From assembly GCF_964194025.1 (NCBI RefSeq), contig NC_134470.1, positions 25,916,001 to 25,980,000 on the forward strand: 64,000 nt of DNA. Reading direction: 5' to 3'. This stretch comes from Convolutriloba macropyga. Taxonomy: Eukaryota. The position numbers and the translations under genes were made by a program. The notes beneath the pieces were generated by a model. That model did not search any database. It saw only the letters and a list, made by a program, of their open reading frames with translations, and had not been told where the DNA came from. Shown here one piece after another: positions 31,611 to 64,000 of this stretch; position 1 is the first letter of the stretch; every line of letters begins with the position of its first letter.

Positions 31611-31613
31611 GAG

Positions 31614-31880
31614 ACAAGAGACAGTTTTGCAAACTGAATTGAATTGCATAAATTGAGAGGAATGAATTAAACAGATTGGAGCCACTTCGGCACAACGTGA
31701 ATACGTGATCAGACATGTCTGATCACGAAGCGGGAAACTATCAGATAACGGAATGAAATGATAAGGTAAACAAATTGAACAAATTAATGAAGGTGAAAGT
31801 AATTGAACTAATTTAAGGCATCAAATAAATTTTACTGCAATGATTAAATAAAATGAATAAATATACCATCAGGTATCACA
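31614..31880 (-). repeat. 5' LTR, truncated (267 bp retained)
   Basis: Direct repeat of 29321-29587, fused directly to integrase-coding sequence. Confidence 0.9.
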
Positions 31881-32110
31881 AGCCCTGTCAGAATTTCATG
31901 TCCACACTTGCGATACGGAATCTCTTTTTTGAACAATTTCTTATCAAAAAGAACTTGAAAGACGGTTTCAAGAAGATAAATCTTCTTCAAATCAGAATTT
32001 CGACTCAAATTTTGGTCAATCATCTTTGTTTTTCTACGTTCCATTCAATTTTTTTTCGATATTTTGATCGTTTTTATCGAATTGCTCAGCCTCGGTAGAA
32101 TTTCCATCAC

Positions 32111-33189: not shown

Positions 33190-34020
33190 ACGTAAGAGTG
33201 GGGTTGCAATGGGAGGATTTTTTTTAGGAAAATGCAGCTCAAAACTCTCACATCTTTTTGAGCTGCATTGGGCTTCCAACGGGGGTAAAATGGTGTAAGA
33301 GTGAGGGGATAAAAGACAAATTAACCCCCCACTCTTACATTTTTTGGTCTGTCAAGGGGGTAAAACGATGTAATAGTTCGGGGTAATGGAGAAATTTGTC
33401 CTTTAACCCCTCCCTCTTACACCATTTTAACCCCAATGGAAGCCCAATGCAGCCCAAAAAGACGTAAGAGTTTTAAGCTGCATTTTCCAAAAAAATCCTC
33501 CCTTTGCAGCCCCTTTCTTACATCATTTTACCCCCTTGGCAGCCCAACTCTTACATCATTTTACCCCCTCAAGCTTACATTGTTTTAGCTCCCATAGCTG
33601 AAGACTGCCAGTTTTGCACCCACAACCTCTGTACCCTCATCTGCGTCGCCTTAACCTCCAGACCATCAACGCTTGTCCAATTCTTGATGGTCAATATATA
33701 TGAATAATACTTGTTAGAATTGTCCCCTCTCAACAAATTAGCCCCTCACTCTTACATCTTTTTACCCCCTCAGAACAAATTACCCTCTCACTCTTAAACC
33801 ATTTTACCCCCCTTGGCAACCCAACTCTTACATCATTTTACCCCCTCTGAACAAATTACTCCCTCACTCTTGCACCATTTTACCCCCTTGGCAGCCCAAC
33901 TCTTACATCATTTTACCCCCTCTGAATATATTACCCCCTCACTCTTACATCATTTTCCCCCTTGGCAGCCCAACTCTTACATAATTTTACCCCCTCTGGA
34001 CAATTTACCCCCTCACTCAA
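33190..34020. repeat. C-rich repeat region: inverted ~130-bp arms (33190-33325 vs 33393-33520) plus a ~70-bp tandem array (CTCTTACATCATTTTACCCCC core)
   Basis: Repeated LLHHFTP / SYIILPP in the ORF track reflects the DNA repeat. The arms are reverse complements by eye. Confidence 0.8.
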
Positions 34021-41885: not shown

Positions 41886-44530
41886 TTTCTATAAAAAATA
41901 ACGATTCTAAATTACATTTTATGCTAAAAATGAAACAAAATTGTGCTTCTAACAGAAGAAAGGCCACTAAAATCCTAGTTTTTGTCTCTTTGGGAAGTTT
42001 ACTGTAAAAAAATTCGATTGCTATTTGAAAAATGATATTTTAAAAACAGTTTCACATTTTTAAATTTTTTTCAAGTCCCTTAGAGACTAGTTGTTTTTCA
42101 AACCCAAATTGTGTTCAAGACAAGCCTCATTTACAGTCAAATGATGCCCAATGAATAAATTGTTTGTTTTTAGGGTATCGCTCTGTTTTTTATGGCTTCG
42201 ACTCTTAGTTGTCGTAATTTTTATTTAAATTTTGATTTTTTTTCTGATAAATTAAAAAATCTTCATAGTCCTATGACAGAGACTCGCTGACTAAAAGTGT
42301 AAAAAGCTTATAAAAGAGCAGTAATTGAACCTATGTAGTAATTTTAGTGGACAGCTAATGGCTGTTAAGACTTAAAAAAATCTTTTTTTTCGTAAAAAAT
42401 TTTGAAAATTAACCGATCTTAAACTTGTTTCAGTGAACTGTAAAACAGTCTCACTATTGACAGGACCACCTTCCTTTCTACTGTAGCCAATATTAATCTG
42501 GTTAGCGGTTTCATCTTTTAACTATTTTCTTTAAGACTCGGATGCCAATGATTATCATAATTTTTTATTCCTTAGGATATTTTTTTCATAAATTAAGATA
42601 CTTTTGAAGTCTTATCACAATAATTTATTGTTCTCAGTTCCCATTGACATAAAGCAGACTTTCAATATATCACAGATAAAATTTGCAGGGAAAAACGTAT
42701 AGTTTTAATGACTTCGACATTGTCCTCTCGCACTTTTCTATTGAGTTTTTGGTTTTTGCCTGTGTTTGTTGTCGTTTTCGTAGTCATACAACTTACTGTG
42801 ATGACTTATTGATGACTTAGCATTGAAAAAAATTACTGCCTTCTCATGGAAGCAAAACTTAATTTAACTTATTAATTATTCATTTTCGTTGAACGCTGTC
42901 GAGATTAATGGTTTTTCTAAGGGTTTTCTCAAAAACTTCGTGGTTTTAATATATTTGTTCACACTTATTTGTTTTTTGTAGTCGTAGACTTTAAATTAGA
43001 ACAAAAACAATTTTTTTATTTTTAGAGCGGGATAATGTTTATCTTTTATTCGTTTTACCACAACCTTGATAAAACATTTTGACGTCAAATAATGCTAGTT
43101 ATTTCCTTGAAGAAACGCCCTCTTGAAGAATTTTTTCAATAAGAATAATGATTTAATAATTAAAAGAATTAATGTCCTAAAATAATTCATTTAGGAGCCG
43201 TTAGAAGTGTAAAATCATTGTTCCGACCACACTTGTGGGTGAAGGAACTATATACTAAAATGGATTTTTTTCAGACAATTTTGGGGGATCGATATATTAA
43301 TCGGAGAGCAATGTGAGCGTTATCATTAAAAGCTGAGCTCGTCCAGCGTAGAGTTCGGATTTAAAGAGGTTTTTTGAGTTTCTTGTTTATTGAGGAGTTA
43401 TTGAGGTACAAAATTTTTCTATAAGAAATTTCTATGAGAGTTTTTCTATAAAAAATCTGGATTCAAAATTACATTTTATGCTAAAAATGAAACAGTCTTG
43501 TGCTTCTGACAGAAGAAGGGCCACTAAAATGGTGGTTTTTCCATCATTGGGAAGTTTACTATCAAAAAAATTTGAATTCTATTTGAGAGCTGATATTTTA
43601 AAAACAGTTTCACCTTTTTTAATTTTTTTCAAGTCACTTAGAGACTAGTTGTTTTTCAAATCCAAGTTCTTTTCAAGACAAGCCTCATTTACAGTCAAAT
43701 GATGCCCAATGAACAGATAAATCGTTTTTAAATTTTTTTATGGCTTCGACATTGAGTTGTCACAATTTTTATTTAAATTTTGATTTTTTTTTGATATATT
43801 AAAAAAAAATTTTGTAGTCCTATCACATAGGCTCGCTGACTAAAGGTGCAAAAAAGCTTATCAAAGAGAAGTACTCGAACCTATGTAGTAATTTTAGTGG
43901 ACAACTAATGGCTGTTAAGACTTAAAAAAAAATCTTTTTCGAAAAAAAAATTGAAAATTAACCGATCTTAAACTTGTTTCAGTGAACTCTATTACAGTCT
44001 CACTATGGACAGCAACGCCTTCCTTTCTACTGTAACCAATATCAATCTGGTTAGCGGTTTCATCTTTTAAATATTGTCTTTAAGACTTCGCCGCCAAGAC
44101 TTATCATAATTTTTTAATATTTGGGATAGTTTTTTCATAAATTAAGATACTTTGAAGTCTTATCACAATAATTTATTGTTCTCAGTTCCCATTGACATAG
44201 AGCAGACTTTCAATATATCACAGATAAAATTTGCAGAGAAAAAACGTATTGTTTTAATGACTTCGACATTGTCTTCTCGCACTTTTCTACTGAGTTTTTG
44301 GTTTTTGCCTGTCTTTTTTGTCGTTTTCATAGTCATACAACTTATTGTGCTGTTTTATTGATGACTCAGCAAAGACAAAAATTACTGCCTTCTCATCGAA
44401 GCATAACTTAATTTAACTTATTTTTATTGATTTCCGTTGAACGCTATTGAAATTAATGTTTTTTTTCTCAGGGTTTTTTCAAAAATTTTATGATTATCAA
44501 ATATTTGTTCACACTTGTTCGTTTTGTAGT
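41439..44530. repeat. Older diverged tandem duplication, ~1.55-1.58-kb unit (41439-43020 and 43021-~44530)
   Basis: TTTAGAGCGGGATAATGTTTATC at ~38753, ~41439 and 43021. TGAAGTCTTATCACAATAATTTATTG at ~42605 and ~44153. Confidence 0.9.
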
Positions 44531-46244
44531 CATATTGTTACGAAAAAGAATTCCATCATTGCTAAAAATTATTTGAAAATGGTTAATTTTTAATCGCTTC
44601 GACACTTTTCTCTCTCAATTTTTTTTGCTGTTATTTCCTGTTTTTGTTCTTTATGTAATTTTAAAGAGCTAAGAGGTTTCAAAAGCCTCTAACTGAGTGT
44701 TTATCGAATGAATTTACTCAATGGAGTAAATTTATAGCAAATAATTTTAAAGTTTATGATATGATTTGTTTTCGAACGTTTTTAAACTTTTTAGTTTTTC
44801 ATCTGTCCAATTGTATCTAATTCTCATCATTGGGAGGCCGCATACACTGGCCTTTAGTTCGAATATTAAAATGGTTTTTGATATTACGTCGTAACTAATG
44901 TTTTGATTGCTGAACAATATGCGTTTTCAAAAAGTTTTGTTAGTATTTGTGTTCCTTCTTCTCTTCTTTAAGTACATCGCGTAATAACAGGTGCCATTGA
45001 TTTGCAGATGAGGCGCAAGCGAACATACTTAATCTTTCTGTATAGTTTTAACTGAAATAATTTAATTAACATTTGACATAAAAACAATATTCAGATAACA
45101 GGGAAAGATTTAAGTGGCCTCAATAATTTGTGTTTCCGCAAATTGCTTGTAATTTTTTCAGTTTTCCTTCATCTGTTGTCCGTTTCTGTGGCTTAGTCTA
45201 ACCAAAGACAAATTCTATTGGTTTTGTAATAACTTTTTAGTAAATTTATCAAGAGTTTTTTTTGTTTAGAGCTAATGGTTTTTAAAACGTTTGTAATTAT
45301 TTGATTTAAAAAAGTTTGGTTGATTTTTGAATTTCTCATCATTATTGCTTCTTTTTGTTAACTTGTTTCCTAGTCTCTATAACATTAAGTCCCCTCTGCT
45401 TTTTGGTAACGAAATTGGTGTAGTTAAGATTTTTTCTGATTGTGTTTTTACGTTGTTACCACGTGCTTTAAAGTTTAAATGTTGAATTTTTACCGTAAAA
45501 TTTTTTTCTTTGCTTACTTTCTTTTCTATTTTACCCCGTAGTCTTATTAACGGTGTGAGATCTCGTGAGCGCTGTAATGAGGCATGGCATTATTAAATTC
45601 TTTTAGTAGATTGTGTAACAATTTTTTTAAACTTAAAGATCTATTTTTTTATTATCTTTTCATTTGGTTGACAGTTATGTCAAAAATGTAGATGAGCGCG
45701 GGTTGGAACATCATGTGCAAACTCATATTAACGAGCCTCCTTGTTTCAGTAATAGAATAAGTTCAAATGAGGTCTTGAACAGCTCTAGAGGGCAGACTGT
45801 TTAATCGGGATGTCGCCAAATACCTGCGATCAAAAATTAATAAAGTATGATAACTTTCAGATTTTTTGTTCTTCGGCAAATAGATCTGGTGCTATTTATT
45901 GAATTAGCGTGTTTGGTTTTAACAAAGCTGTTTTACTTTGAGTTTTGATTGGAGTGTGCATTCACGCAAAATTATCTTTTAATCACATAACTATGTCTCT
46001 TTGTTTCTTTGATTATCAGAAAGGATTACCAACTTATCAATGTTTATCTTTTCACAATCGAACACAAATTGTGATTTGCAGCTGACGAAAATTTGTTTCT
46101 TTGATTTAAAAACTTTGCATTAACTTATAAGCAACGTCTATCGTTTTTATTCTACGCAAAATCAGCAAAGTACAAAATCTAATTCAGTTGAATTTGAGTT
46201 TCTAGTTATTTTCTCATATACGTTGCTAATCTTTTTGTAACACC

Positions 46245-46666
46245 ATGAAACCCTTATATTGCTCAGATCAGGATTCTGTTTTTCATTCTCCTCTAGGAGA
46301 ATACAACTACGCATCAGAGAAATGGGAAAGCATGAAGCACTTTTTGTCTGATATATTCTTGGGAGAGTATCGTGAGAGTAGAGTGATTGAGTCCCTGTCA
46401 GAGAGAAGTCTCTCTTACGAGGAATTATACAGGAGAGGAGAAGAGGTCTCATCTCAACTGAGGAGACAGTTTGGAGTGTGTGAAGGATCCATTGTTCACA
46501 TTGTGAGTGAGAATGGATTTGATTGGCTCACAATCCTCCTCGCCTCCTACTTGAACAACTCTATCCTCTCAGCCACTCATCCTAAGTCACCATGGCCAGA
46601 GTGCGAGAGGAACATTGAGACCACGTGTTCGACAGTCCTCATTGTGTCTGAAAAATGTTACAAAAG
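46245..46666 (+). CDS. First coding exon of an ANL-family acyl-CoA synthetase (4-coumarate-CoA ligase/luciferase-like)
   Basis: ATG at 46245. SLSYEELYRR...FGVCEGSIVHIVSENGFDW...HPK...STVLIVSE matches the N-terminal part of AMP-binding enzymes. Donor AG|gtatat at 46666/46667. No further exons seen in the window. Confidence 0.75.
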
Positions 46667-47404
46667 GTATATTTTTTGACGCTCCCCACACCGCATGTCA
46701 ATTCTGTGAAACGAAAAACGTATACTTGTGGTGATGGCGTCGTATTTTATGTAAGATTAACGCAGTCGGCGTTAAAAACAAAATGTCGTTGCTTTTTTAA
46801 CGTCAATCTTACCTATATTAGCGTCGATAATACCTTGATCTTAGATGAATAAGTGTCAAAACATTGCATTTGATCTTCAAAACGATGTTGGATCTTTTTT
46901 GCTAGCGCCCCCACCCCAGCCCTATATAGTCGTTATTACAGCAACCCCAAAATCTAAGTTTTCCTGAATTGTAAGAACGTATTTGCATTTAACTGAAACA
47001 AGAGTGACTAGGTAGATTGAAGGCACTTTTAGAATAGTTTCCTTATAAAAATTTTAAAATCGAGCCCTTATTGTAGCCACCCGGTGCTACGATTCTCATT
47101 TTTCTTGCCAAGTTCCTATTTGGGACTTGCCAAGATCAGAAGAAATCCTATCAGGAATCCTATTGGGAAACTTACCAAGAATTGTAGGTGGTGGTAAGTA
47201 TATGCAAGTTCTCACTTTTCCCACTAGGAATTTTGAGAAACCTCGGAATCCTAGCAAGAAAAATGGGCACAATAAGAATCTTGCTAGGAAATTTTGAGAC
47301 TCTTTAGGATTCTCGTCAGGAAAAGTGGGAGATAATGGGTTTCCCAGTGAGAAAAATGAGAAAACAGTGGGATTGTTTGTAGGGAAAATCAGTACTAGAG
47401 TTAG

Positions 47405-47731
47405 CCAGGACCCGCAAAAAGTTGTTTCAGAGAAGCCGGGACAGTAAAGCACAAAAGCACACGATAAGGGTGAGGGACCCATAGAAGCCGGGACCCTAAA
47501 AAAACAAAAGCTGTCCCAGAAAAGCCACAACAGAAGAGCAGAAGCACACAAGGGATGGGGAGGGACCCAGAGAAGCCGGGATCCTAAAAGAACCAAAAGC
47601 TGTCCCAGAGAAGCCGGGACAGTAAAGCACAAAAAAACACAATAATGGGGAGGGACCCAGAGAAGCCGGAACCCTAACAAAACAAAAGCTGTCCCAGAGA
47701 AGCCAGGACAGAAAAGCAGAAGCACACAAGG
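47405..47731. repeat. GC-richer minisatellite, core CCCAGAGAAGCCGGGAC, alternating ~38/~51-bp spacing (~89-bp period)
   Basis: Seven core copies at about 47428, 47477, 47515, 47566, 47604, 47656 and 47693. Confidence 0.85.
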
Positions 47732-50700
47732 GTCTTTTCGATCCGAAGAATTGATAAATCTCATTCGCGACAGTTGTCCAACACGAAATTTGAATTGAAC
47801 TGTCATCCTGACCAACCAGTGAGTCACTCAAGGCCCATACCCTTTTCAATAGCATTTCTTCTAAACATACGTCAAAATATGACCAGTCATATGCGACAGA
47901 TAACAGGAAAAACGAGAACTGAAGAAAATTTTGGGTTCAGTTTACCCCTTAAGTTGATTTTTCGAGAAAAAATTATCATAAAAACCTTTTTCTAGTGTAA
48001 AACCAAGCTACAATAGTCACCCCATCTTTTGTTATTTGAAAAAGGATGTAAGCAATACTCTCCTTTGACCTCAAACAATTTTGAAATGGTCTTTTTGATC
48101 CGAAGAATTGATAAAACTCATTCGCGACAGTTGTCCAACACGAAATTTGAATTGAACTGTCATCCTAACCAATCAGTCAGGCTTTCAAAGACAAAACTTT
48201 TTGTAAATAGCGTGTTTTGTAACCAGACGTTAATATACGATCAGTCATATGCGAAAGATAACACTTAAAAACGGAAACTGAAGAAAATTTTGGGTTCATT
48301 TTACCCCTTAAGTTGGTTTTTGGTGAGAAAAAATTATCAGAAAAAACCCTCCGCTAGTGTGTAACCACGCTACGTTAGTCCTCCTATCTTTTGGTTTATG
48401 AATCAGGATGTAAGCAATGATCTCCTCTGACCTCAAACAGTTTTGAGATGGTCTTTTCGATCCGAAGAATTGATAAATCTCATTCGCGACAGTTGTCCAA
48501 CTCGAAATTTGAATTGAATTGTCATCCTAACCAACCAGTCAGGCTTTCAAGGACAATACGTTTTGTAAATAGCGTGTTTTGTAACCAGACGTTAATATAC
48601 GATCAGTCATATGCGAAAGATAACACTTAAAAACGAAAACTGAAGAAACTTTTGGGTTCATTTTACCCATTAAGTTGAGTTTTGGAGAGAAAAAGAATTA
48701 TGAGAAAAAACCTTCCGCTAGTGTGAAACCACGCTACGTTAGTCCTCCTATCTTTTGGTTTTTGAATTAGGATGTACGCAATAATCTCCTCTGACCTCGC
48801 ACAATTTTGAAATGGTCTTTTCGATTCGAAGAATTGATAAATCTCATTCGCGATAGTTGTCCAACACGAAATTTGAAATGAACTGTCATCCTAACCAACC
48901 AGTGAGGCTCTCAAGGAAAATACTTTTTGTAAATAGCATGTTATCTAAACATACGTGAAAATATGACCAGTTATACGCGATAGATAACAGGAAAAACGAG
49001 AACTGAAGAAAATTTTGGGTTCATTTTACCACTTAAGTTGATTTTTCGAGAGAAAAAATTATCATAAAAACCTTTTTCTAGTGTAAAACCAAGCTACAAT
49101 AGTCACCCCATCTTTTGTTATTTGAAACAGGATGTAAGCAATACTCTCCTTTGACCTCAAACAATTTTGAAATAGTCTTTTTGATCCGAAGAATTGATAA
49201 AACTCATTCGCGACAGTTGTCCAACACGAAATTTGAATTGAACTGTCATCCTAACCAATCAGTCAGGCTTTCAAAGACAAAACTTTTTGTAAATAGCGTG
49301 TTTTGTAACCAGACGTTAATATACGATCAGTCATATGCGAAAGATAACACTTAAAAACGGAAACTGAAGAAAATTTTGGGTTCATTTTACCCCTTAAGTT
49401 GGTTTTTGGTGAGAAAAAATTATCAGAAAAAACCCTCCGCTAGTGTGTAACCACGCTACGTTAGTCCTCCTATCTTTTAGTTTTTGAATCAGGATGTAAG
49501 CAATGATCTCCTCTGACCTCAAACAGTTTTGAGATGGTCTTTTCGATCCGAAGAATTGATAAATCTCATTCGCGACAGTTGTCCAACTCGAAATTTGAAT
49601 TGAATTGTCATCCTAACCAACCAGTCAGGCTTTCATGGACAATACTTTTTGTAAATAGCGTGTTTTGTAACCAGACGTTAATATACGATCAGTCATATGC
49701 GAAAGATAACACTTAAAAACGGAAACTGAAGAAAATTTTGGGTTCATTTTACCCCTTAAGTTGGTTTTTGGTGAGAAAAAATTATCAGAAAAAACCCTCC
49801 GCTAGTGTGTAACCACGCTACGTTAGTCCTCCTATCTTTTAGTTTTTGAATCAGGATGTAAGCAATGATCTCCTCTGACCTCAAACAGTTTTGAGATGGT
49901 CTTTTCGATCCGAAGAATTGATAAATCTCATTCGCGACAGTTGTCCAACTCGAAATTTGAATTGAATTGTCATCCTAACCAACCAGTCAGGCTTTCATGG
50001 ACAATACTTTTTGTAAATAGCGTGTTTTGTAACCAGACGTTAATATACGATCAGTCATATGCGAAAGATAACACTTAAAAACGAAAACTGAAGAAACTTT
50101 TGGGTTCATTTTACCCATTAAGTTGAGTTTTGGAGAGAAAAAAAATTATGAGAAAAAACCTTCCGCTAGTGTGAAACCACGCTACGTTAGTCCTCCTATC
50201 TTTTGGTTTCTGAATTAGGATGTACGCAATAATCTCCTCTGACCTCGCACAATTTTGAAATGGTCTTTTCGATTCGAAGAATTGATAAATCTCATTCGCG
50301 ATAGTTGTCCAACACGAAATTTGAAATGAACTGTCATCCTAACCAACCAGTGAGGCTCTCAAGGAAAATACTTTTTGTAAATAGCATGTTATCTAAACAT
50401 ACGTGAAAATATGACCAGTCATACGCGATAGATAACAGGAAAAACGAGAACTGAAGAAAATTTTGGGTTCATTTTACCACTTAAGTTGATTTTTCGAGAG
50501 AAAAAATTATCATAAAAACCTTTTTCTAGTGTAAAACCAAGCTACAATAGTCACCCCATCTTTTGTTATTTGAAACAGGATGTAAGCAATACTCTCCTTT
50601 GACCTCAAACAATTTTGAAATGGTCTTTTCGATCCGAAGAATTGATAAATCTCATTCGCGACAGTTGTCCAACACGAAATTTGAATTGAACTGTCATCCT

Positions 50701-53700
50701 AACCAACCAGTCAGGCTTTCAAAGACAATACTTTTTGTAAATAGCGTGTTTTGTAACCAGGCGTTGATATACGATCAGTCATATGCGAAAGATAACACTT
50801 AAAAACGGAAACTGAAGAAAATTTTGGGTTCATTTTACCCCTTAAGTTGATTTTTGGTGAGAAAAAATTATCAGAAAAAACCCTCCGCTAGTGTGTAACC
50901 ACGCTACGTTAGTCCTCCTATCTTTTGGTTTTTGAATCAGGATGTAAGCAATGATCTCCTCTGACCTCAAACAGTTTTGAAATGGTCTTTTCGATCCGAA
51001 GAATTGATAAATCTCATTCGCGACAGTTGTCCAACTCGAAATTTGAATTGAACTGTCATCCTAACCAGCCAGTCAGGCTTTCAAGAACAATACTTTTTGT
51101 AAATAGCGTGTTTTGTAACCAGACGTTAATATACGATCAGTCATATGCGAAAGATAACACTTAAAAACGAAAACTGAAGAAACTTTTGGGTTCATTTTAC
51201 CCATTAAGTTGAGTTTTGGAGAGAAAAAAAAATTATGAGAAAAAACCTTCCGCTAGTGTGAAACCACGCTACGTTAGTCCTCCTATCTTTTGGTTTTTGA
51301 ATCAGGATGTACGCAATAATCTCCTCTGACCTCACACAATTTTGAAATGGTCTTTTCCATTCGAAGAATTGATAAATCTCATTCGCGATAGTTGTCCAAC
51401 ACGAAATTTGAAATGAACTGTCATCCTAACCAACCAGTGAGGCTCTCAAGGAAAATACTTTTTGTAAATAGCATGTTATCTAAACATACGTGAAAATATG
51501 ACCAGTCATACGCGATAGATAACAGGAAAAACGAGAACTGAAGAAAATTTTGGGTTCATTTTACCCCTTAAGTTGATTTTTCGAGAGAAAAAATTATCAT
51601 AAAAAACCTTTCGCTAGTGTGAAACCAAGCTAAAATAGTCCTCCCATCTTTTGTTATTTGAAACAGGATGTAAGCAATACTCTCCTTTGACCTCAAACAA
51701 TTTTGAAATGGTCTTTTCGAGTCGAAGAATTGATAAATCTCATTCGCGACAGTTGTCCAACATGAAATTTGAATTGAACTGTCATCCTAACCAACCACTG
51801 AGGCTCTCAAGGACAATACTTTTTGTAAAAAGCATGTTATCTAAACATACGTCAAAATATGACCAGTCATATGCGATAGATAACAGGAAAAACGAGAACT
51901 GAAGAAAATTTTGGGTTCATTTTACCCCTTAAGTTGATTTTTCGAGAGAAAAAATTATCATAAAAAACCTTTCACTAGTGTGAAACCACGCTAGAATAGT
52001 CCTCCTATCTTTTGGTATTTGAATCAGGATGTAAGTAATGATCTCCTCTGACCTCAAACAATTTTGAAATGGTCTTTTCGAGTCGAAGAATTGATAAATC
52101 TCATTCGCGACAGTTGTCCAACATGAAATTTGAATTGAACTGTCATCCTAACCAACCACTGAGGCTCTCAAGGACAATACTTTTTGTAAAAAGCATGTTA
52201 TCTAAACATACGTCAAAATATGACCAGTCATATGCGATAGATAACAGGAAAAACGAGAACTGAAGAAAATTTTGGGTTCATTTTACCCCTTAAGTTGATT
52301 TTCGAGAGAAAAAATTATCATAAAAAACCTTTCGCTAGTGTGAAACCACGCTAGAATAGTCCTCCTATCTTTTGGTATTTGAATCAGGATGTAAGCAATG
52401 ATCTCCTCTGACCTCAAACAATTTTGAAATGGTCTTTTCGATCCGAAGAATTGATAAATCTCATTCGCGACAGTTGTCCAACACGAAATTTGAATTGAAC
52501 TGTCATCCTAACCAACCAGTCAGGCTTTCAAAGACAATACTTTTTGCAAATAGCGTGTTTTGTAACCAGACGTTAATATACGATCAGTCATATGCGAAAG
52601 ATAACACTTAAAAACGAAAACTGAAGAAAATTTTGGGTTCATTTTACCCCTTAAGTTGAGTTTTGGTGAGAAAAAATTATCAGAAAAAACCTTCCGCTAG
52701 TGTGAAACCACGCTACGTTAGTCCTCCTATCTTATGGTTTCTGAATCAGGATTAAAGCAATAATCTCCTCTGACCTCAAACAATTTTGAAATGGTCTTTT
52801 CGATTCGAAGAATTGATAAATCTCATTCGCGACAGTTGTCCAACACGAAATTTGAATTGAACTGTCATCCTAACCAACCAGTCAGGCTTTCAAAGACAAT
52901 AATTTTTGCAAATAGCGTGTTTTGTAACCAGACGTTAATATACGATCAGTCATATGCGAAAGATAACACTTAAAAACGAAAACTGAAGAAAATTTTGGGT
53001 TCATTTTACCGCTTAAGTTGAGTTTTGGTGAGAAAAAAATATCAGAAAAAACATTCCGCTAGTGTGAAACCACGCTACGTTGGTCCTCCTATCTTATGGT
53101 TTCTGAATCAGGATTAAAGCAATAATCTCCTCTGACCTCAAACAATTTTGAAATGGTCTTTTCGATTCGAAGAATTGATAAATCTCATTCGCGATAGTTG
53201 TCCAACACGAAATTTGAATTGAACTGTCATCCTAACCAACCAGTGAGGCTCTCAAGGACAATACTTTTTGTAAATAGCAAGTTATCTAAACATACGTGAA
53301 AATATGACCAGTCATATGCGATAGATAACAGGAAAAACGAGAACTGAAGAAAATTTTGGGTTCATTTTACCCCTTAAGTTGAGTTTTGGTGAGAAAAAAT
53401 TATCAGAAAAAACCTTTCGCTAGTGTAAAACCAAGCTACAATAGTCCTCCCATCTTTTGTTATTTGAAACAGGATGTAAGCAATACTCTCCTTTGACCTC
53501 AAACAATTTTGAAATGGTCTTTTCGAGTCGAAGAATTGATAAATCTCATTCGCGAAAGTTGTCCAACATAAAATTTGAATTGAACTGTCATCCTAACCAA
53601 CCAGTGAGGCTCTCAAGGACAAAAATTTTTGTAAAAAGCATGTTATCTAAACATACGTCAAAATATGACCAGTCATATGCGGTAGATAACAGGAAAAACG

Positions 53701-56440
53701 AGAACTGAAGAAAATTTTGGGTTCATTTTACCCCTTAAGTTGATTTTTCGAGAAAAAATTATCATAAGAAACCTTTCGCTAGTGTGAAACCACTTTAGAA
53801 TAGTCCTCCTATCTTTTGGTATTTGAATCAGGATGTAAGCAATGATCTCCTCTGACCTCAAACAATTTTCAAATGGTCTTTTCGATCCGAAGAATTGATA
53901 AATCTCATTCGCGACAGTTGTCCAACACGAAATTTGAATTGAACTGTCATCCTAACCAACCAGTCAGGCTTTCAAAGACAATATTTTTTGTAAATAGCGT
54001 GTTTTGTAACCAGACGTTCATATACGATCAGTCAAATGCGAAAGATAACACTTAAAAACGAAAACTGAAAAAAATTTTGGGTTCATTTTACCCCTTAAGT
54101 TGATTTTTGGTGAGAAAAAATTATCAGAAAAAACCCTCCGCTAGTATGAAACCACGCTACGTTAGTCCTCCTATCTTTTGGTTTTTGAATCAGGATTAAA
54201 GCAATAATCTCCTCTGACCTCAAACAATTTTGAAATGGTCTTTTCGATTCGAAGAATTGATAAATCTCATTCGCGATAGTTGTCCAACACGAAATTTGAA
54301 TTGAACTGTCATCCTAACCAACCAGTGAGGCTCTCAAGGACAATACTTTTTGTAAATAGCATGTTATCTAAACATACGTGGAAATATGACCAGTCATATG
54401 CGATAGATAACAGGAAAAACGAGAACTGAAGAAAATTTTGGGTTCATTTTACCCCTTAAGTTGAGTTTTGGTGAGAAAAAATTATCAGAAAAAACCTTTC
54501 GCTAGTGTAAAACCAAGCTACAATAGTCCTCCCATCTTTTGTTATTTGAAACAGGATGTAAGCAATACTCTCCTTTGACTTCAAACAATTTTGAAATGGT
54601 CTTTTCGAGTCGAAGAATTGATAAATCTCATTCGCGACAGTTGTCCAACATAAAATTTGAATTGAACTGTCATCCTAACCAACCAGTGAGGCTCTCAAGG
54701 ACATTACTTTTTGTAAAAAGCATGTTATCTAAACATACGTCAAAATATGACCAGTCATATGCGATAGATAACAGGAAAAACGAGAACTGAAGAAAATTTT
54801 GGGTTCATTTTACCCCTTAAGTTGATTTTTCGAGAGAAAAAATTATTATAAAAAACCTTTCGCTAGTGTGAAACCACGCTAGAATAGTCCTCCTATCTTT
54901 TGGTATATGAATCAGGATGTAAGCAATAATCTCCTCTGACCTCAAACAATTTTGAAATGGTCTTTTCGATCCGAAGAATTGATAAATCTCATTCGCGACA
55001 GTTGTCCAACACGAAATTTGAATTGAACTGTCATCCTAACCAACCAGTCAGGCTCTCAAGGACAATACTTTTTGTAAATAGCATGTTATCTAAACATACG
55101 TCAAAATATGACCAGTCCTATGCGATAGATAACAGGAAAAACGAGAACTGAAGAAAATTTTGGGTTCATTTTACCCCTTAAGTTGAGTTTTGGTGAGAAA
55201 AAATTATCAGAAAAAACCTTTCGCTAGTGTAAAACCAAGCTACAATAGTCCTCCCATCTTTTGTTATTTGAAACAGGATGTAAGCAATACTCTCCTTTGA
55301 CTTCAAACAATTTTGAAATGGTCTTTTCGAGTCGAAGAATTGATAAATCTCATTCGCGACAGTTGTCCAACATAAAATTTGAATTGAACTGTCATCCTAA
55401 CCAACCAGTGAGGCTCTCAAGGACAATACTTTTTGTAAAAAGCATGTTATCTAAACATACGTCAAAATATGACCAGTCATATGCGATAGATAACAGGAAA
55501 AACGAGAACTGAAGAAAATTTTGGGTTCATTTTACCCCTTAAGTTGATTTTTCGAGAGAAAAAAGTATTATAAAAAACCTTTCGCTAGTGTGAAACCACG
55601 TTAGAATAGTCCTCCTATCTTTTGGTATATGAATCAGGATGTAAGCAATAATCTCCTCTGACCTCAAACAATTTTGAAATGGTCTTTTCGATCCGAAGAA
55701 TTGATAAATCTCATTCGCGACAGTTGTCCAACACGAAATTTGAATTGAACTGTCATCCTAACCAACCAGTCAGGCTCTCAAGGACAATACTTTTTGTAAA
55801 TAGCATGTTATCTAAACATACGTCAAAATATGACCAGTCCTATGCGATAGATAACAGGAAAAACGAGAACTGAAGAAAATTTTGGGTTCATTTTACCCCT
55901 TAAGTTGATTTTTCGAGAGAAAAAATTATTATAAAAAACCTTTCGCTAGTGTGAAACCACGCTAGAATAGTCCTCCTATCTTTTGGTATATGAATCAGGA
56001 TGTAAGCAATAATCTCCTCTGACCTCAAACAATTATGAAATGGTCTTTTCGATCCGAAGAATTGATAAATCTCATTCGCGACAGTTGTCCAACACGAAAT
56101 TTGAATTGAACTGTCATCCTAACCAATCAGTCAGGCTTTCAAAGACAAAACTTTTTGTAAATAGCGTGTTTTGTAACCAGACGTTAATATACGATCAGTC
56201 ATATGCGAAAGATATCACTTGAAAACGAAAACAGAAGAAAATTTTGGGTTCATTTTACCCCTTATGTTAAGTTTTGGAGAGAAAAAATTATCCAAAAAAC
56301 CTTTTCTCTAGTGTGAAACCACGCTACGTTAGTCTTCCTATCTTTTGGTGTTTGAATCAGGATGTAAGCAATAGCCTCTTATGACCTCAAACAATTTTGA
56401 AATTGTCTTTTCAATTCGAAATGATAAATCTCATTCGCAA
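47732..56440. repeat. Satellite array, ~361-bp monomer, ~24 copies, two main subtypes with irregular higher-order structure
   Basis: GTCTTTTCGA(T/G)(C/T)CGAAGAATTGATAAATCTCATTCGCGA recurs every ~360-363 bp from 47732 to ~56405. Repeated short ORFs at 49534/49896, 52429/52791 etc. show the period. Confidence 0.98.
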
Positions 56441-56555
56441 AAATTGAATTAAATTTGAAAGAAAACACAAAAGAAGTGAAACACTCGGAAAGAAGTTTTC
56501 AACAGTTATAGTAAATCATTTTCAATCATTTTGAACAGGGTTTCTCTGAAACAGA

Positions 56556-57736
56556 TTAATCGCGCTCAAAAGTTACGCAAAGTGTAGACAAAATTAAGCG
56601 TCCGTCTATTTCTCGAACAATGCAAGGCGATAAAAGTTTTTTCACATCAACTAAGGTGACATCACTATTCGCACACTGAATTAAATGATGATTTTCGTAG
56701 CAGCTACTGACCAATTCAAGCCCCTCGTCCAAATTCACTGCTACTCTGGAATGCTCGGTTGGTGACGAGTGATTTTCGAGTTTCTGTATAAGAAAACCTG
56801 TGAATGTTTTCGATGAGTCAAAATCAACAAGATGCACAGCTGCACTTTTTTCCGAAACATCAACAAATATGTCAGTCAACTGACCAAAACCTGTCGCGCC
56901 TTCTTTTTCATACTCAACAAAATGCACGCAGGTTTTGTTAACGTTCCAAGTACATTTACTGCCGTGACAAGCATACATCTTAGAATCTAGCTCAAACGTC
57001 TTGCTTGACATTAAAGTCTCCCGGCTTCCATTTACTTCAATTATACGCTCCGTAGGCTGAAGCAGCTTGAGTGAACCCACTGTTATCGTCTTCGAGTTTC
57101 CCTTTAACTTTTTCCTGAAAAATCGTCTTTGATGCCGTTTGACTGCTAGCTTTGTAGCAACAATGGCACTTGTGTTTGGACCAATAGCGCGTTTCAGATG
57201 AAAATGAGCGGACTCAAATGGAATTGACGACAATGAAGCCAAGGGTCCCGTCTTTTTTGCCTGGTCAGCTAGATGACCGAGAGAATGCATATTGTAACTT
57301 TGAGCCGCTTCTCCATAAAAATTAGGAACCAATTTCCGAAAAATTTTGATAAGAACCTCTGCCTTGTCATAACTCTGCTCTCTGACCGGTTCAATTAAAT
57401 AACGTATTGCAGTACTCAGTAGATAGAAGTGCACAAACATGGGCACTGAGAGAACACCAAAAAAAGACACAAAGCCGTATAAGAGAAACAACTTCAGTTC
57501 TGTTGCCTTCCAATATTTGAGTGTTACTAGAGATCGCAATTGTCTTTTGTTGTCAGTTCCTGGCACCTTACACTTTGAAAGGTTGGCTGACACTTGCGTT
57601 TTATTCCGGCCCAAAAATTTTCTCGATCCGTTGATTCTGCAGAGAAGGGTTTTGACAACACCAAGGAGCACTTGATGCATGTAGTCTATCAGCATTTCAT
57701 CGGGGAGAGTAACAACACTTTCAATTGCTGAGGGCC
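56556..57736 (-). CDS. SET-transposase fusion, exon 2: C-terminal half of CACTA/EnSpm-like DDE transposase
   Basis: IDYMHQVLLG, WKATELKLFLLY and YNMHSLGHL...GPL...SSIPFES motifs. Acceptor tttttgtttag|GG joins exon 1 in frame (LYGLRG-PSAIE). Stop at 56556. Confidence 0.9.
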
Positions 57737-57870
57737 CTAAACAAAAAGATATCCAAAACAATTGGAAAATTTTTTGAGTTTTTAAGGGACTCTAGGAAAA
57801 AAACAGTGACTAAACGTTCTTAAACTCGAGCTATGCAGTAATGGGAGAAAGAAAAGATCAGAAATATTAC

Positions 57871-59734
57871 CTCTTAAACCATATAATGATCTGCACTCTG
57901 ATCCCAGGCATTCCAAAATTAACTGCCGCTCTTTTGATGTCCTTTGAGACACATCAGGCTCATGGAACGGATAAATCCAGGTATCTTTAGCCAGAGCTCT
58001 ACGTCCAACAGCTAGGCAATTCGTGCACCCATAACGCCCATTAAACTGAGTTTGGTTCACTAGAGGTGCTTTCATTACCATATCAACAATTACGTATTTT
58101 AGCTTCACAGTGAACGTATAGGAACTCCCATTTATCTGGAGAACCTTTGGCGAACTGAAACCTGACAGGATTTTGACTGTATGTTTCATCAGATTTTCAC
58201 AATGCGGTTTTTTTTCTCCACCAAATAATGAAACTAAGAGTAAATTCCGGTAGCTAACACGTCGCCTTGCGGGTAAGTTGAGAAGCATGAGCCAGACTGG
58301 GTACAGAGAAAATTTAGCTGAGTTAAAAGGAGAAACCCCGTCAGTGCTTAGAGCAAAATATAAACAGAATTTATTCGACTTCGGTAAACACAAGTCAGTC
58401 TGGAGTTGATAACCTTCAGTGCTAACAAGATCAAAATTTTCACTGAGCAAGTGACTGAGTTGTCGCTCAAAATTAAGGTCATACAGGAGGCCTTCTGGTA
58501 GTTGAGTTTCACTAAGGCCAGATAGTGAACTGATTTCTTGTTGTCTTAGTGAATATAAGCTCGGCAAATTGTTAGCTGCAGGTAACGCTTTTCTAAACAA
58601 GGAAAGAACTGCGCCCAAACCACGCTCGGGGAGATTATGAATGTCAGCTAATTCTATTAACTCAGAGCAAAATGATCGGGTAGTCAAACTCGAACCCAAA
58701 CAGATCATCTCTTCAATTTCAGAGCTACTTGTCATGTTCGACCTTTCACGCCTTTCATCATCAGAGTGATCACCTTGAGACCCTATCGGCTCTAAAAGCT
58801 CTTCGTCGTTGTCCGATATAAAGTCAATTCTATTAGGCGTTGAGCATTCCTTTTCTCTTACATTGTCAAAAAAAAGATTAGCTTCGGATGAAATGCCTAG
58901 ACTTTCATTTTCTGATATATCGGGCGACGCAGTAATAGAGCTCGAAGACTCGGAAGATGTTTCGTATCTGACTCTGTACCGAGACTTCTTAATTCTTCGC
59001 GGCTGATAAGTTGGCCCAACATCTCGATGTCGCCTACGAAGTTTTTGAAGAGCTCGTTGCTCTGTGGTACTTGTCACGAGCCGTTCGCTAACAGTGCTTA
59101 GGCTTCTAACTTTTCCAGAGCGCGTCCAACTTTGAATTGGATGTTCTTTACCGTGCATTTCAGAGAAGGGACATTCGCAATGCACTCTATTTGGGCCAAA
59201 ATAATCACCACTGTATAGCACAGTTATTTCATCACCAGGAAAAAGACCGTTTCTTGAAATCACTCGAATGCTCACTTTCGTTCGCTTTGAATTCCCAACA
59301 TAAGTACAGTTTTCCCTGCAACTAGAATTGATGAAGGAAACGCCTCCTAGCATAATTTTCGATCCCGTATGATGACGAAAAACCGACACATCGTTAACAC
59401 CCTCAACAATTTCGCATTCTTTAATCGGAGCCAAGAAACCAACAAGACCAGGTATAACATCTCCTTTCACAAATCTTTTCTTAGCAAAGACGCCAAAGCT
59501 TGTGAAACCGTTGTCCATTTTAAAATTTGAAGAAAGAGCTCGATACTCAACGTTTAACAAAGACAGAACATATTCCTTCTCAATTTCGTTTTTCAGATGA
59601 CTGAATCCGGACTGGTTTTTAAGAGATAAGTCGCAGACAATTTTATGGGAAACTTTGCCGTCCGAATCAATGTACTTCGAAGTGAGTTCAGCATCTGCTA
59701 ACGCTAAGTCATGCCAAAATATATGACGATTCAT
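57871..59734 (-). CDS. SET-transposase fusion, exon 1: Suv4-20/Set9-like SET domain, low-complexity linker and N-terminal half of CACTA/EnSpm-like transposase
   Basis: ATG at 59734. SET at ~59150-59500: GVFAKK, LVGFLA, NDVSV, LGGVSFINSSCRENC, GDEITVLYSGDYFG...CEC. Transposase: STDGVSPF..S.YPVW...NLP...R...N...KP and IVDMVMKA...NGRYGCTNC. Donor G|gtaata at 57871/57870. Confidence 0.9.
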
Positions 59735-59774
59735 GTTTTGTACTAAAGTATGAAACAAAGGAGTCAATTGGGTG

Positions 59775-60055
59775 TGGAAAAACTTAGAAAACAGTATATT
59801 CAAACAATTTCAAACACCGACCAGGCTATCTAAATTTGGTGTCGATCCCCTAACGAGCGTGATTTGAACCAGTTTAAAGTTGTATCAACCGAAAAGAAAG
59901 ACAAAGGATGAATTGCTTTGGCTAAAGTTTTATTTCATTTCAATTGCCTTATCCCACATTGTGAAACAGTTGGAATGGGTTATAATGAGAACGGAAAAAG
60001 CGTGCAGCGAAAAATTAGCAGGCCACAGAGGTTGAATTTAAAAATAAAACATTTT
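59775..60055 (-). promoter_or_regulatory. ~290-bp paralogous upstream module, copy 1 (others at ~61150-61425 and ~62332-62605); putative promoter/5' leader
   Basis: Shared blocks GGCTATC(T/C)AA, AAAGTT..TCAA, TATCCCA and AATGAGAACGGAAAAA in all three copies, each just upstream of a minus-strand ATG. Function is inferred. Confidence 0.5.
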
Positions 60056-60181
60056 AAGCATCACTGAATCAAATTATAGCTTGTCAGAAAATTGATTAGT
60101 TCAACACATTATTAAGACAACAGCAATAAGTTCTAAGAAAAGAGGATAATCAAACTCAGTGATCATGACTCAGTGTTCCAG

Positions 60182-60715
60182 TTAACAATTTTTGCAGCAA
60201 AAAATTTCGGATTCTACAAAGCAATCATTGCAACTAAATTCTCCGCACTTCGGACATTCTACAAAGTCAGCATTTGTGGATTTGACATTTATGCGGCAGA
60301 CCGCACATCGTAGTGGCAAGAAAGAGCCAAAGCTTGAAGTCAAATTCCGTTTCTTGAAGCTTTGCCACCATTCAGTTCCTGCTTCCTGCCGTTCATGCCA
60401 AGTTGCAGGGAAGTTCACATCATAGTACTTCCCCTTTTGATAAACATATCCCAGTATTTGCTTTAGTTGTCTTTTTCTTTGTGAGCACCAACCTTTGATA
60501 TCAGTAGCCATGGCTGCCTCTTGGATTTTGTTGAACACGTTCCTCTGAGCAGGACTATTGGTCTTCAGCTTCCTTTTCAGGGTACTCAGTGGCACACCCG
60601 TAGACCGTGCAACACATCTTGCTCCATAATTCCCCTCTTGCACCAAAAACAACGCCATCTTCAAATCATACTCTGTGTAGCTATGAGCGGTTTTTCGTTC
60701 GTAGGATCTAGGCAT
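60182..60715 (-). CDS. HTH-psq + CENP-B-type HTH + C-terminal 8-Cys PHD-like finger protein (pogo/Tigger-like, no DDE domain), 177 aa
   Basis: MPRSYERKT..YTEYDLKMAL..V..G......VARSTGVPLSTLKRKL; AGTEWWQSFKKRN; C-x2-C-x13-C-x2-C-x4-C-x2-C-x8-C-x2-C at the C-terminus. Confidence 0.8.
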   Translation of the reverse strand: MPRSYERKTAHSYTEYDLKMALFLVQEGNYGARCVARSTGVPLSTLKRKLKTNSPAQRNVFNKIQEAAMATDIKGWCSQRKRQLKQILGYVYQKGKYYDVNFPATWHERQEAGTEWWQSFKKRNLTSSFGSFLPLRCAVCRINVKSTNADFVECPKCGEFSCNDCFVESEIFCCKNC

Positions 60716-60945
60716 TTTGCATCTTAAACAGTTACACAAACGGAGACAATAATTGTTTCAAAAATTGATGCGTTATCTATGTTATTTAGTAAGATGTTCC
60801 ACAAAGATGTGTCGTAAAAATCAAATTCTAAAAAACGGTTCGATTCATTTGCAGGTTCTTCGGGGGACAACAAAACGAAAAGTCCAGGTTGGCATTGTCT
60901 AATTCAGAAAAAATTGAGCTCAAAAAAGGAATACAAAGAAAATAC

Positions 60946-61112
60946 AACATATTCCTTCTCAATTTCTTTTTTCACATGACTGAATGCCGACTGGTTTTTA
61001 TGAGACAAGTCACAGAAAATTTTATGGAAACTTTGCCGTCCGAATAAATATACTTTGAAGTGAGCTCAGCATCTGCTAACGCTAAGTCATGCCAAAAAAT
61101 ATGACCATTCAT
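60946..61112 (-). pseudogene. Frameshifted, truncated duplicate of the 5' end of the SET-transposase gene
   Basis: Matches 59567-59734. Reads MNGHIFWHDLALADAELTSKYIYSDGKVS, then a 1-bp deletion (GTTTCCATA vs GTTTCCCATA) and an early stop. Confidence 0.85.
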
Positions 61113-61637
61113 GTTTCGCACTGAAGTATGAAACGAAAGGAGTCAACTAGGTGTGGGAAAATTTAGCATATTAAAACAATTAAACACAGCCCGGGCTATC
61201 TAAATTTGATCTCAATCACCTAACTGGCCCAATTTCAACGAGGTTAAAGTTTGATCAACCAAAAAGAAAGAAAGCAGAAACTGGTTTGGTTAAGCTTTTA
61301 CATCATTTCAAATGTTTTATCCCAACTTGCGGAGCAGTTGACATGAGTGATAATGAGAACGGAAAAAGATTGCGAAAAAACTGGAAGCCAACAGAAGGTG
61401 AATTTATGAATACCGAAAACTTTTTACCATCAATAAGAGTCATTTTAAAAGGCTAAAAAACTTGTATCAAAACAATATTAACACAACAGCATCAGTAAAA
61501 GTAAAATAAAATCAAGAACTTCTGGTTCAAAAAGTATTATCGCTGTATAGAATACTGTATGAGAGACGCTGTATAAACCAGGAAACGATCCATCGTAATT
61601 GCTCGAATTGTTTTCAAATCGAAGGCTTTCAAAACTC

Positions 61638-62153
61638 CTAGTTTAAGTCCAATTGTTCACCATTATTTCCGGAGTTGTTAACCGTAGCTGACAGTTTCTT
61701 CAAGTCTCTACCTTTTTGATTGATTGCCCTTCTGGCTTCCTCCCATTTATTGCCGAACCTGCTCTCAATATAGCTTTTGATAATGTCGACTTTTTCGCTG
61801 TCCAGCGGAGTACGGGTTGAAGTCTTCTGTGGGCTTATTATTCCCTCTCGCAGTTCGTCTTCCGTAAACAATTCACTTGCCAAACGGACTCCATATGCCC
61901 CAGGAGTTGCACCAGTTTTCAACTTCAAACCACTGTCACTCTTGCCAATTGACTGATCGTCTTTCGCTGGGGTTGAGATGTCGGCTCCTTCGTTTGACGT
62001 TATCGCTACTTTATGATACGAGGCTCTCTCGTTGCACCTACTTAGGGCTTCCTGCAAACGCCTGCTCTCTATTCTAGTCTTCTTAACTGAATTTTTGAGC
62101 TCTTCTGACGCGGATTCTAAATCGCTTAGAACTTTCTCAAGCTTGGTGTTCAT
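61638..62153 (-). CDS. Coiled-coil + BEN-domain protein (BEN-1), ~171 aa, possibly with an upstream exon
   Basis: N-terminal heptads, then YGVRLASELFTEDELREG...TPLDSEKVDIIKSYIESRF...WEEARRAINQKGRD, a typical BEN pattern (LF..EEL, LD...I, W.....IN.K.R). An acceptor-like ttatttctag lies 10 nt upstream of the ATG. Confidence 0.8.
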   Translation of the reverse strand: MNTKLEKVLSDLESASEELKNSVKKTRIESRRLQEALSRCNERASYHKVAITSNEGADISTPAKDDQSIGKSDSGLKLKTGATPGAYGVRLASELFTEDELREGIISPQKTSTRTPLDSEKVDIIKSYIESRFGNKWEEARRAINQKGRDLKKLSATVNNSGNNGEQLDLN

Positions 62154-62959
62154 TTCCAACTTCTAGAAATAAGGCAAAAATGAAAATTTCTTCAAAACTT
62201 AGTAAAATTGTGTTGTCCCTAAGGATTCATGCAATTATTAAAACCCAAACTTATGTGCTAATAATTTGCTTATGTGCATAATAATAACTTATGTGCTTAA
62301 TATTTGAAAACACTTCAAACTTTTTAGGATCTGGAAAAAACTTAGAAAACAGCTTTTTCAAACAATTTTGAACCAAGCCGGCTATCCAATTTAACAGCAG
62401 TTACCTATCTATCACGCTTTGAACGAGGATAAAGTTGATTCAAACAAAAAAGACTAAAAGAGGTTAATTTGGTTAAAAGTTTGTTTCATTTGAAGTGATC
62501 TATCCCAATTCTCGAAACAGTCGACATGGGTGAAAATGAGAACGGAAAAATCTTGCTGCAAAAGTATAGAAGCCCAGAGAAGGTAAATTAATGAATACCA
62601 AAAAAAATCAATGAGAATCACTTCACAAGGCTGTAAAACATCAAATGCATAAATACGCCTCTCAATCAACAGTAATTACATTGAAAGCACCACTATGAAA
62701 GGTAATCGTAGCAGCTAAGAGAATCACTTTTTTACTGTATTGTAGGCATAATATCAGTTTACATAAACTTATTGCGAAAACAAAACAAGAAGCATTGGAT
62801 GACTCTGACAGTCAGAACAAATCGACTTTGTCACAATTAAATGATTGGAATGAGATCTGGATTAATTTAACAGGCAGTTGTATCAACATGAAAGCATAGT
62901 TTGCAACAGCATGAAAACGATCACACGATGTATCTTACTTTCTCGCAGCCATAAAAGTA

Positions 62960-64000
62960 TCACCCTTCAGTGACCACCCCAAAGCCATCATTTTCCTTCG
63001 ACGCATCCAGATCCTCCTTTTCAAAATTCTCAGCACTAGCATCCATCAACCGTTTCTTGACTTTTTTCGAGTCCCGTGCACAATCATTTATCGACTTTCG
63101 CGCAAGATACCATTGTCCAGGGAAACGCTCCTCGACCATCTTCTGAATTTTTTCCATGCGCTCAGGATCTAAAGCTGGTTTTGTTGCCTTCTCTGGTTGC
63201 GCAATTCCTCTAATTCGCTCATCTAAGGTGAATAATCTTTTAAAAAGATTAATACCAAATTTACCGGGCGTGCTCCCGGGCAGCTTATTGAGCACTTCGC
63301 CTCCTTCAATAAATTGCTCGCACGCACTGGCTTTCGGTGTTGGCTGCGCCGAAACTTCAGGAGCGTTAGAGTCTAGAAGCTTTCGAATATTTCGAGAATC
63401 TCGTCTTTGGATGTTCAATGCTTCGGTGACGAGCTTGAGCGTTTCACAAACGCTTTCTAGAGTCTCTACAAGGCGTTTATTTTGAACTTGATTAACAGCA
63501 ACTTCCACATTCTCGCTTACTTCTGGTTCATCGTTTACATCGTTGATCATTGCTGTTTCAGCCTCTTGATTTGGTTGATGTGTTTCCTCGTTATCAGACA
63601 AGTTAATAGACTCATTATCGCTCTCTACCCGGATTGACTTCGATCCTGACTGCACCGGTTCTGTCGCTTTTCGTTTTCCGGAAAAGAACGACACGATGTC
63701 GCCATCTTTCTTTTGCGGGGGTTGACTTTTGCAATTTTGAGACTTGGAACTGTCTGGCAGTTCTTCATGAAGATCAGAGAACGTTAAATCAACCATTTCT
63801 GTAGAGGACACATTGTCAATCCTGTTTTCTACTTGCGTGAGTACTTGCCTCTCAGAATCCTCAGAATCCGTCACACCAATGAACTTAGCGTGAAAAGTAC
63901 CCTCGTCATAGCGCAACGGTAGTTTTTTGTTCGAGCCCGGCGCATTCGCGAACTTCAATCGTTCCGAGTAGTTTAAGTCCTTCGGCCAAAACTTGCTATT
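62960..64000 (-). CDS. BEN-domain protein (BEN-2), 5' end beyond the window
   Basis: Frame is open to the window edge (NSKFWPKDLNYSERLKF...). Acidic linker and coiled coil, then FGINLFKRLFTLDERIRG...ALDPERMEKIQKMVEERF...WYLARKSINDCARD. Paralogous to BEN-1 (GSTPGKFG vs GATPGAYG). Confidence 0.82.
   Translation of the reverse strand, partial: NSKFWPKDLNYSERLKFANAPGSNKKLPLRYDEGTFHAKFIGVTDSEDSERQVLTQVENRIDNVSSTEMVDLTFSDLHEELPDSSKSQNCKSQPPQKKDGDIVSFFSGKRKATEPVQSGSKSIRVESDNESINLSDNEETHQPNQEAETAMINDVNDEPEVSENVEVAVNQVQNKRLVETLESVCETLKLVTEALNIQRRDSRNIRKLLDSNAPEVSAQPTPKASACEQFIEGGEVLNKLPGSTPGKFGINLFKRLFTLDERIRGIAQPEKATKPALDPERMEKIQKMVEERFPGQWYLARKSINDCARDSKKVKKRLMDASAENFEKEDLDASKENDGFGVVTEG

Follow-up and report, generated by a model that had tools for sequence, protein, structure and literature searches.

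Two divergent BEN-domain genes, most likely carried by a SET-fused CACTA-type transposon of Convolutriloba macropyga

The analysed window comprises 64,000 nucleotides of the Convolutriloba macropyga genome (NC_134470.1, positions 25,916,001 to 25,980,000 of the forward strand). Four open reading frames were located on the same (minus) strand in the order BEN-B, BEN-A, an HTH/zinc-finger ORF and a SET-transposase; next come a satellite with a 361-bp unit and a stretch full of repeats that resembles a transposon terminus. The putative element formed by these parts measures more than 17 kb, its right end lying beyond base 64000 of the window; neither a TIR pair nor a target-site duplication was seen within these limits.

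The short-form gene, BEN-A, was mapped to 61638..62153 (minus strand) and encodes 171 aa from the ATG at 62153, within a frame that is open over 61638-62162 (174 aa stop to stop). A long N-terminal helix, probably a coiled coil (about 61992-62153), is followed by a linker and then by the BEN domain (about 61695-61913). Against the Pfam BEN family (PF10523) the protein scored 25.3 bits (E 1.7e-5), above the curated cut-off of 23.2. A pyrimidine-rich AG acceptor at 62163, directly upstream of the frame and in phase 0, probably marks a 5'-UTR intron.

The structure of BEN-A was predicted with a mean pLDDT of 74.9. In the resulting model, a single long helix (residues 2-57, with a mean pLDDT of 86-95 over residues 1-40) would lead through a disordered linker to a compact domain at about residues 85-164. 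Following comparison with 48,161 chains using VIA-align, the top five rows were BEN structures; the best row was Bsg25A (Z 9.8, rmsd 3.3, 87 residues aligned), and BEN structures extended down to Z 7.2, with unrelated rows from 6.6. In Foldseek, BEN structures likewise took each of the first 10 places, although with weak E-values (0.01-0.06). Best structural matches of the model were Bsg25A (4x0g), BANP (7yuk) and Insv (4ix7), while identity of BEN-A to solved BEN domains is only 16-24%. BEN-A was firmly identified as a BEN-family protein.

The long-form gene, BEN-B, runs from 62960 to 64000 and beyond (minus strand). Its start lies just outside the window, leaving 346 of 398 aa inside and the first 52 codons past the edge; a database protein of 398 aa (P0010) was 100% identical over the region searched. 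An N-terminal alpha/beta domain (about 63806-64000 and beyond) is followed by a long acidic linker, a helix that is probably a coiled coil (about 63371-63499) and the BEN domain (about 63062-63277). Pfam BEN was the sole family listed, at 17.7 bits (E 0.004) and thus below the cut-off, and the predicted model was poor (pLDDT 41.7), a fold search with that model giving no meaningful match. With such a score and such a model, BEN-B was assigned by homology to BEN-A and not by cut-off, and is read from its sequence as a divergent BEN protein. The N-terminal domain, of approximately 85 residues, is conserved in the long-form proteins BEN-B, P0031, P0034, P0041, P0047 and P0050. It gave no Pfam match; its residue pattern resembles, we assume, that of the SH3/Tudor-like domains of other BEN proteins.

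Homology between the two proteins was confirmed by BLASTP (37/92 identical, E 2e-18), by a local alignment score of 168 compared with a maximum of 74 in 1000 shuffles, and by 32 identical residues in a core of 72. The architectures differ, BEN-A consisting of helix and BEN domain only, whereas BEN-B adds the N-terminal alpha/beta domain and the acidic linker. Across the 72 core codons that align, identity was 0.50, 0.62 and 0.28 at the first, second and third codon positions, pS was 0.89 (saturated) and dN about 0.64. Since synonymous sites are saturated while the proteins are conserved, the A/B split is old; long-term protein-level constraint on both proteins is supported by these alignments.

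An earlier note, made from the letters of the window, had described two BEN-like genes with open frames, a description that holds: BEN-A passes the Pfam BEN cut-off and BEN-B is homologous to BEN-A. The shared consensus given there, written as a regular expression, matched both proteins, and the Pfam search it proposed placed BEN-A above the cut-off and BEN-B below. Its claim that diverged DNA with open frames points to selection on both genes agrees with the saturated synonymous sites and conserved proteins. The pairwise dN/dS comparison it called for yielded a dN, and no ratio is quoted because dS is saturated. A coiled coil had been claimed for both proteins: the long, confident helix in the BEN-A model favours it, but the heptad signal relative to shuffles is modest for BEN-A (p 0.06) and for BEN-B (p 0.12). 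Among eight family members subjected to the same heptad test, three gave p < 0.05.

Relatives of the pair were collected by profile searches. Ten of 15 close relatives list BEN at E <= 0.5, one of them above the cut-off. A profile built from both families ranked BEND3 sequences first among PDB sequences, at E-values of only 0.02-0.05, and recovered 135 clusters among 1.84 billion representatives. Pfam BEN is matched by 47 of the 130 clusters that were new (E <= 0.01); no fewer than three of the 130 are unrelated. A second profile, of the N-terminal domain (six seeds), matched 16 of 147 proteins; seven of these were neither seeds nor BEN-B relatives, so that long and short forms both run through the subfamily. 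In a bacterial and archaeal genome set no relatives turned up: of 35 pattern matches, none was confirmed.

For tree building, profile hits were required to have 55 or more matched positions, which left 114 of 145. In a quick tree of 113 rows, BEN-A grouped with a third group, C, with a support of 90, and BEN-B was placed elsewhere. In a careful tree of 39 rows, chosen as nearest, A, B and C each fell on one side of a branch, and the relation among the three was not settled by that tree. A clade of A and B was recovered in neither tree; forcing it in the 39-row tree cost 6.6 log-likelihood units (AU p 0.066). The trees neither join nor firmly separate BEN-A and BEN-B. Their description as tandem paralogues in the earlier note stands as regards homology, but the two were not recovered as sisters, and a tandem duplication within the element is neither shown nor excluded.

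The SET-transposase (56556..59734, minus strand) consists of an N-terminal Suv4-20-like SET domain fused to a CACTA/EnSpm-type transposase. A likely 134-nt intron was placed at 57870-57737 (GT-AG), resulting in an open frame of 1014 aa; among 28 possible in-frame GT-AG joins, this one shows splice sites close to consensus and fits P0022, an uninterrupted homologue. The protein carries D, D, CxxC, H and E motifs (TDGVS, VDMVMKA, CTNC, DYMH and FESAHFHL), which we take to be the CMC catalytic set. Pfam listed Transposase_21 on the first exon only (E 6.4e-5, 22.7 bits, below the cut-off of 28.6), in addition to DUF1258. Judged by these motifs and Pfam listings, the transposase belongs to the CACTA/EnSpm (CMC) group with a tnp2-type DDE domain and is apparently intact.

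All 10 PDB sequences matched by the SET domain at E <= 0.01 were SUV420H1/H2 (E about 2e-11 to 5e-11), and by similarity the SET and post-SET sequence is closest to Suv4-20 (KMT5B-C). Where SUV420H1 has the motif NHDC, 8/8 proteins examined have NSSC or NSCC. The Tyr that follows and the Cys pair of the post-SET are retained in the SET-transposase proteins, the post-SET reading CxCPxxExH. In the same number of proteins (8/8 examined), the post-SET is followed by a WTRSG/RTRSG/WTRSR motif, which presumably resembles nucleosome acidic-patch binding motifs. A search with the transposase gave nine clusters; eight were scanned, and SET was listed in seven, Transposase_21 in six and both in five. 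As relatives of the SET-transposase span 37-95% identity, the fusion is old. The SET-CACTA fusion is arguably more striking than the BEN pair.

Between BEN-A and the transposase lies the HTH ORF (60182..60715, minus strand), whose N-terminal part is HTH-like and whose C-terminal part is rich in Cys and resembles a zinc finger. Pfam HTH_7 was matched at E 0.012, below the cut-off, and no significant match was obtained among PDB sequences (best E 0.056).

BEN-A, the HTH ORF and the transposase are each preceded by a copy of a non-coding module of approximately 300 bp; the copies are 70-79% identical and share a 16-bp core without variation. The copy upstream of BEN-A (62336..62639, minus strand) is a probable promoter/5'-UTR and contains the best splice donor, at 62404. 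The copy upstream of the HTH ORF (60946..61491, minus strand) is accompanied by a frameshifted duplicate of the initial ~200 bp of the transposase CDS, the stretch 60946-61491 being 79% identical to 59567-60125. The third copy (59778..60125, minus strand) lies directly upstream of the SET-transposase start. The middle copy with its broken transposase start looks as if genes had been added behind duplicated promoters. A coding role for the module was rejected, as identity is flat across codon positions and every frame is interrupted. An Rfam scan of 46900-64000 gave no match.

The 361-bp satellite (47731..56438, 24 units) and the repeats beyond it were recorded without strand; the satellite probably lies inside the element. 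Its units are 83-99% identical, belong to interleaved subtypes and carry one TCGCGA each. Units 1, 4, 8, 11, 16, 19 and 21 group together, which suggests higher-order amplification; a 180-bp half-repeat within the unit was unsupported (score 20 compared with a shuffle mean of 20.5). An 89-bp tandem repeat of 3.4 copies follows at 47417..47732. The adjoining segment of about 340 bp, 47080..47416, is dense in short direct and inverted repeats and may represent a subterminal region and the element's left end. It holds 30 repeated 8-mers, compared with a shuffle maximum of 9, a count that was obtained for one end only and that 4 of 137 other windows reach.

Homology among module, subterminal segment and satellite was also considered and rejected, since local scores were not above shuffles and only short words (TTCTCA, TCTCATT) are common to them. 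TTCTCA occurs five times in the 357-bp subterminal segment and in all module copies; over the first 46 kb its frequency is roughly one per kb. Four BEN target words, typed from recall or abstracts, were tried: CCAATTGG, ACATGT, CCCACG and TCGCGA. The first three are absent from satellite, module and subterminal segment; TCGCGA in the satellite is a post-hoc lead only, and candidate sites are weak. On the plus strand, an exon of an AMP-binding-enzyme gene (46245-46666, Pfam E 7e-9) ends in a GT donor, so that the element probably sits in a host intron.

Further repeats were recorded elsewhere in the window. Direct repeats of 273 bp (98.5%) flank ORFs with rve integrase and H2C2 domains at 29321-31886, a short LTR-retrotransposon-like element. 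Large recent tandem duplications were found at 2144-8413 and 36504-44534 (3.1 kb at 98.8% and 2.7 kb at 97.6%), together with older partial copies at 80-86%. An inverted-repeat pair of ~335 bp (86%) and an imperfect palindrome of ~350 bp, at 26044-27270 and 33184-33529, are MITE-like. The assembly contains a gap of 200 N at 22901-23100.

Association of the BEN genes with the element was assessed from database clusters at 90%. Those nearest the window proteins contain 28 (BEN-A), 32 (BEN-B) and 40 (transposase) members, counts that may partly reflect several assemblies; clusters of a second family contain 13, 20 and 34 members, respectively. Between the two families, identity was 60.6% for BEN-A, 60.8% for BEN-B and 59.5% for the transposase. 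These matching identities are the ground on which the clusters of the three proteins were paired into one putative family, and multi-member clusters with a second family at ~60% are consistent with joint inheritance of the three. The longest contig is 174057 for both P0004 (A) and P0012 (B), and 971975 for both P0015 (B) and P0024 (transposase), which is only a hint of co-location. P0004, P0012 and P0017 end in a shifted frame or read through a stop, as decayed copies do.

With a probability of about 0.6, the BEN pair represents accessory genes of a multi-gene CACTA/EnSpm-type transposon of more than 17 kb, encoding TnpA-like DNA-binding regulators. Each BEN protein would form homo- or hetero-oligomers via its N-terminal helix, and the BEN domain would bind short motifs of the element in the subterminal repeats, the promoter module or the internal satellite. 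Bound in this way, the proteins could control transcription of the element from module-driven promoters and may help to recruit or position the SET-transposase. Insv and BANP oligomerise through coiled coils (PMC6317261, PMC11472053). BEN-solo proteins bind short sites as homodimers, in ELBA two different BEN proteins and an adaptor occupy an asymmetric site, and the Insv and Elba2 loci are adjacent (PMC4281564). By analogy with Drosophila ELBA and Insv, heterodimers or binding of different satellite variants, both raised in the earlier note, are plausible. That characterised BEN-solo proteins are host repressors or insulators and not transposition factors counts against a TnpA-like role.

A narrower form of this explanation is an obligate, ELBA-like heteromer of BEN-A and BEN-B that works only jointly and reads an asymmetric site. 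We consider it less likely than not. In its favour, at least two element families have retained both genes, which diverged equally, and Elba1 and Elba2 act as a heterotrimer with Elba3 on such a site (PMC4281564). However, BEN-solo proteins can each bind DNA as homodimers too (PMC4281564), and since the wider family includes long as well as short forms, the two genes may have been retained for separate roles. Alternatively, two BEN genes may have been picked up by the element as passengers, perhaps independently, and be retained because they act on host chromatin or damp the element, with no role in transposition. A and B are not sisters in either tree, the promoter-like module copied before several ORFs (one with a broken transposase start) offers a route to cargo expression, and BEN-solo proteins are known as repressors and insulators. 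Capture nevertheless appears rather unlikely, since saturated synonymous sites with a conserved protein in multi-copy elements would be easiest to obtain via element-level selection; moreover, A and B as one clade were not rejected (AU p 0.066).

In mod(mdg4), one N-terminus is spliced to alternative 3' exons, and the clean phase-0 acceptor directly before the BEN-A frame would allow a comparable single gene, in which the N-terminus of BEN-B is joined to either BEN exon. Such splicing is very unlikely because no good phase-0 donor is visible: the BEN-B CDS in the window has none at 7/9 or more consensus matches, the best donor (62404) lies in the module, and BEN-A has its own upstream module copy. 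In addition, six short-form relatives (P0028, P0004, P0007, P0027, P0009 and P0032; 33-75% identity) have an initial Met immediately ahead of the helix, though this is a kind of start that gene callers tend to prefer. It is likewise very unlikely that ordinary host BEN genes merely lie beside a transposon. The right end of the element falls outside the window and BEN genes are common in animals, as the 135 clusters found by the profile illustrate, but multi-member clusters, damaged relatives, a module common to the transposase and matched divergence argue against single-copy host genes. Most likely, the BEN genes lie inside the element, as the earlier note had stated; the element would be of CACTA type and carry them between its two ends.

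The proposed accessory role has parallels in characterised systems. TNPA of En/Spm binds subterminal repeats, is required for transposition and regulates the element; En/Spm TnpA and Tam1 TNP1 are likewise DNA-binding proteins separate from a tnp2-type transposase, in elements with repeat-rich subterminal DNA (PMC2613891). TnpA has tandem HTH motifs derived from the transposase, and a 2026 survey covering 962 Spm-encoded structures indicates that proteins of this kind seem to be limited to flowering plants (10.64898/2026.08.24.746577); besides HTH proteins resembling TnpA, the survey names further accessory domains that it does not specify, and its main text makes no mention of BEN. In the present element the accessory domain is BEN, and there are two BEN genes and an HTH ORF, with a putative function. 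Drosophila Insv, Elba1/Bsg25A, Elba2 and human BANP combine an N-terminal coiled coil with a single BEN domain, an arrangement that the present pair probably shares, but are host genes, whereas BEN-A and BEN-B appear to be multi-copy and lie in a transposon array. In contrast to ELBA, no Elba3-like adaptor was identified in this analysis, and BEN-B has an extra N-terminal domain. Bracoviruses carry a BEN gene family (PMC5704228), likewise on mobile DNA but as viral cargo. A BEN-like fold reads Tn3 ends in DBD1 of TnpA (PMC9579193), where it resides inside a bacterial transposase. Neither case is a pair of free-standing genes within a eukaryotic DNA transposon.

SET genes have been described in HarbingerS and MuDR elements of Phytophthora; these elements, fungal transposons carrying TET/JBP and VANDAL with VANC likewise encode their own chromatin-modifying or anti-silencing factors (PMC12730594). 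They differ from the present case in superfamily and host group, and here a Suv4-20-type SET is found in the same ORF as a CACTA-type transposase, together with BEN genes. A literature search, with subscription journals and Repbase outside its scope, returned no report of BEN genes in CACTA elements and none of a Suv4-20-CACTA fusion. The parts are familiar and their combination was not found in print; the BEN pair is real, conserved and divergent, and most likely constitutes accessory genes of a SET-fused CACTA-type transposon.

The gene content points to an element equipped to recognise and to mark its own DNA. A bolder extension, which we regard as distinctly unlikely, is that an oligomer of BEN-A and BEN-B reads the ends, the promoter modules or the 361-bp satellite and recruits the Suv4-20-like SET-transposase, resulting in H4K20 methylation on the element or at insertion sites. 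The transposon would then set its own heterochromatin state and could seed satellite-bearing heterochromatin where it lands. The Suv4-20-like SET on the transposase, kept across families to about 37% identity, allows a direct test of self-written histone marks. Work on BEN proteins has treated them as repressors and insulators of the host, and the accessory proteins described for CACTA elements come mainly from plants. Should BEN proteins fill the TnpA role in an animal-type CACTA lineage, the pair would provide a small, testable case of two BEN proteins dividing or sharing DNA targets, and transposons would become a candidate reservoir for the many lineage-specific animal BEN genes.
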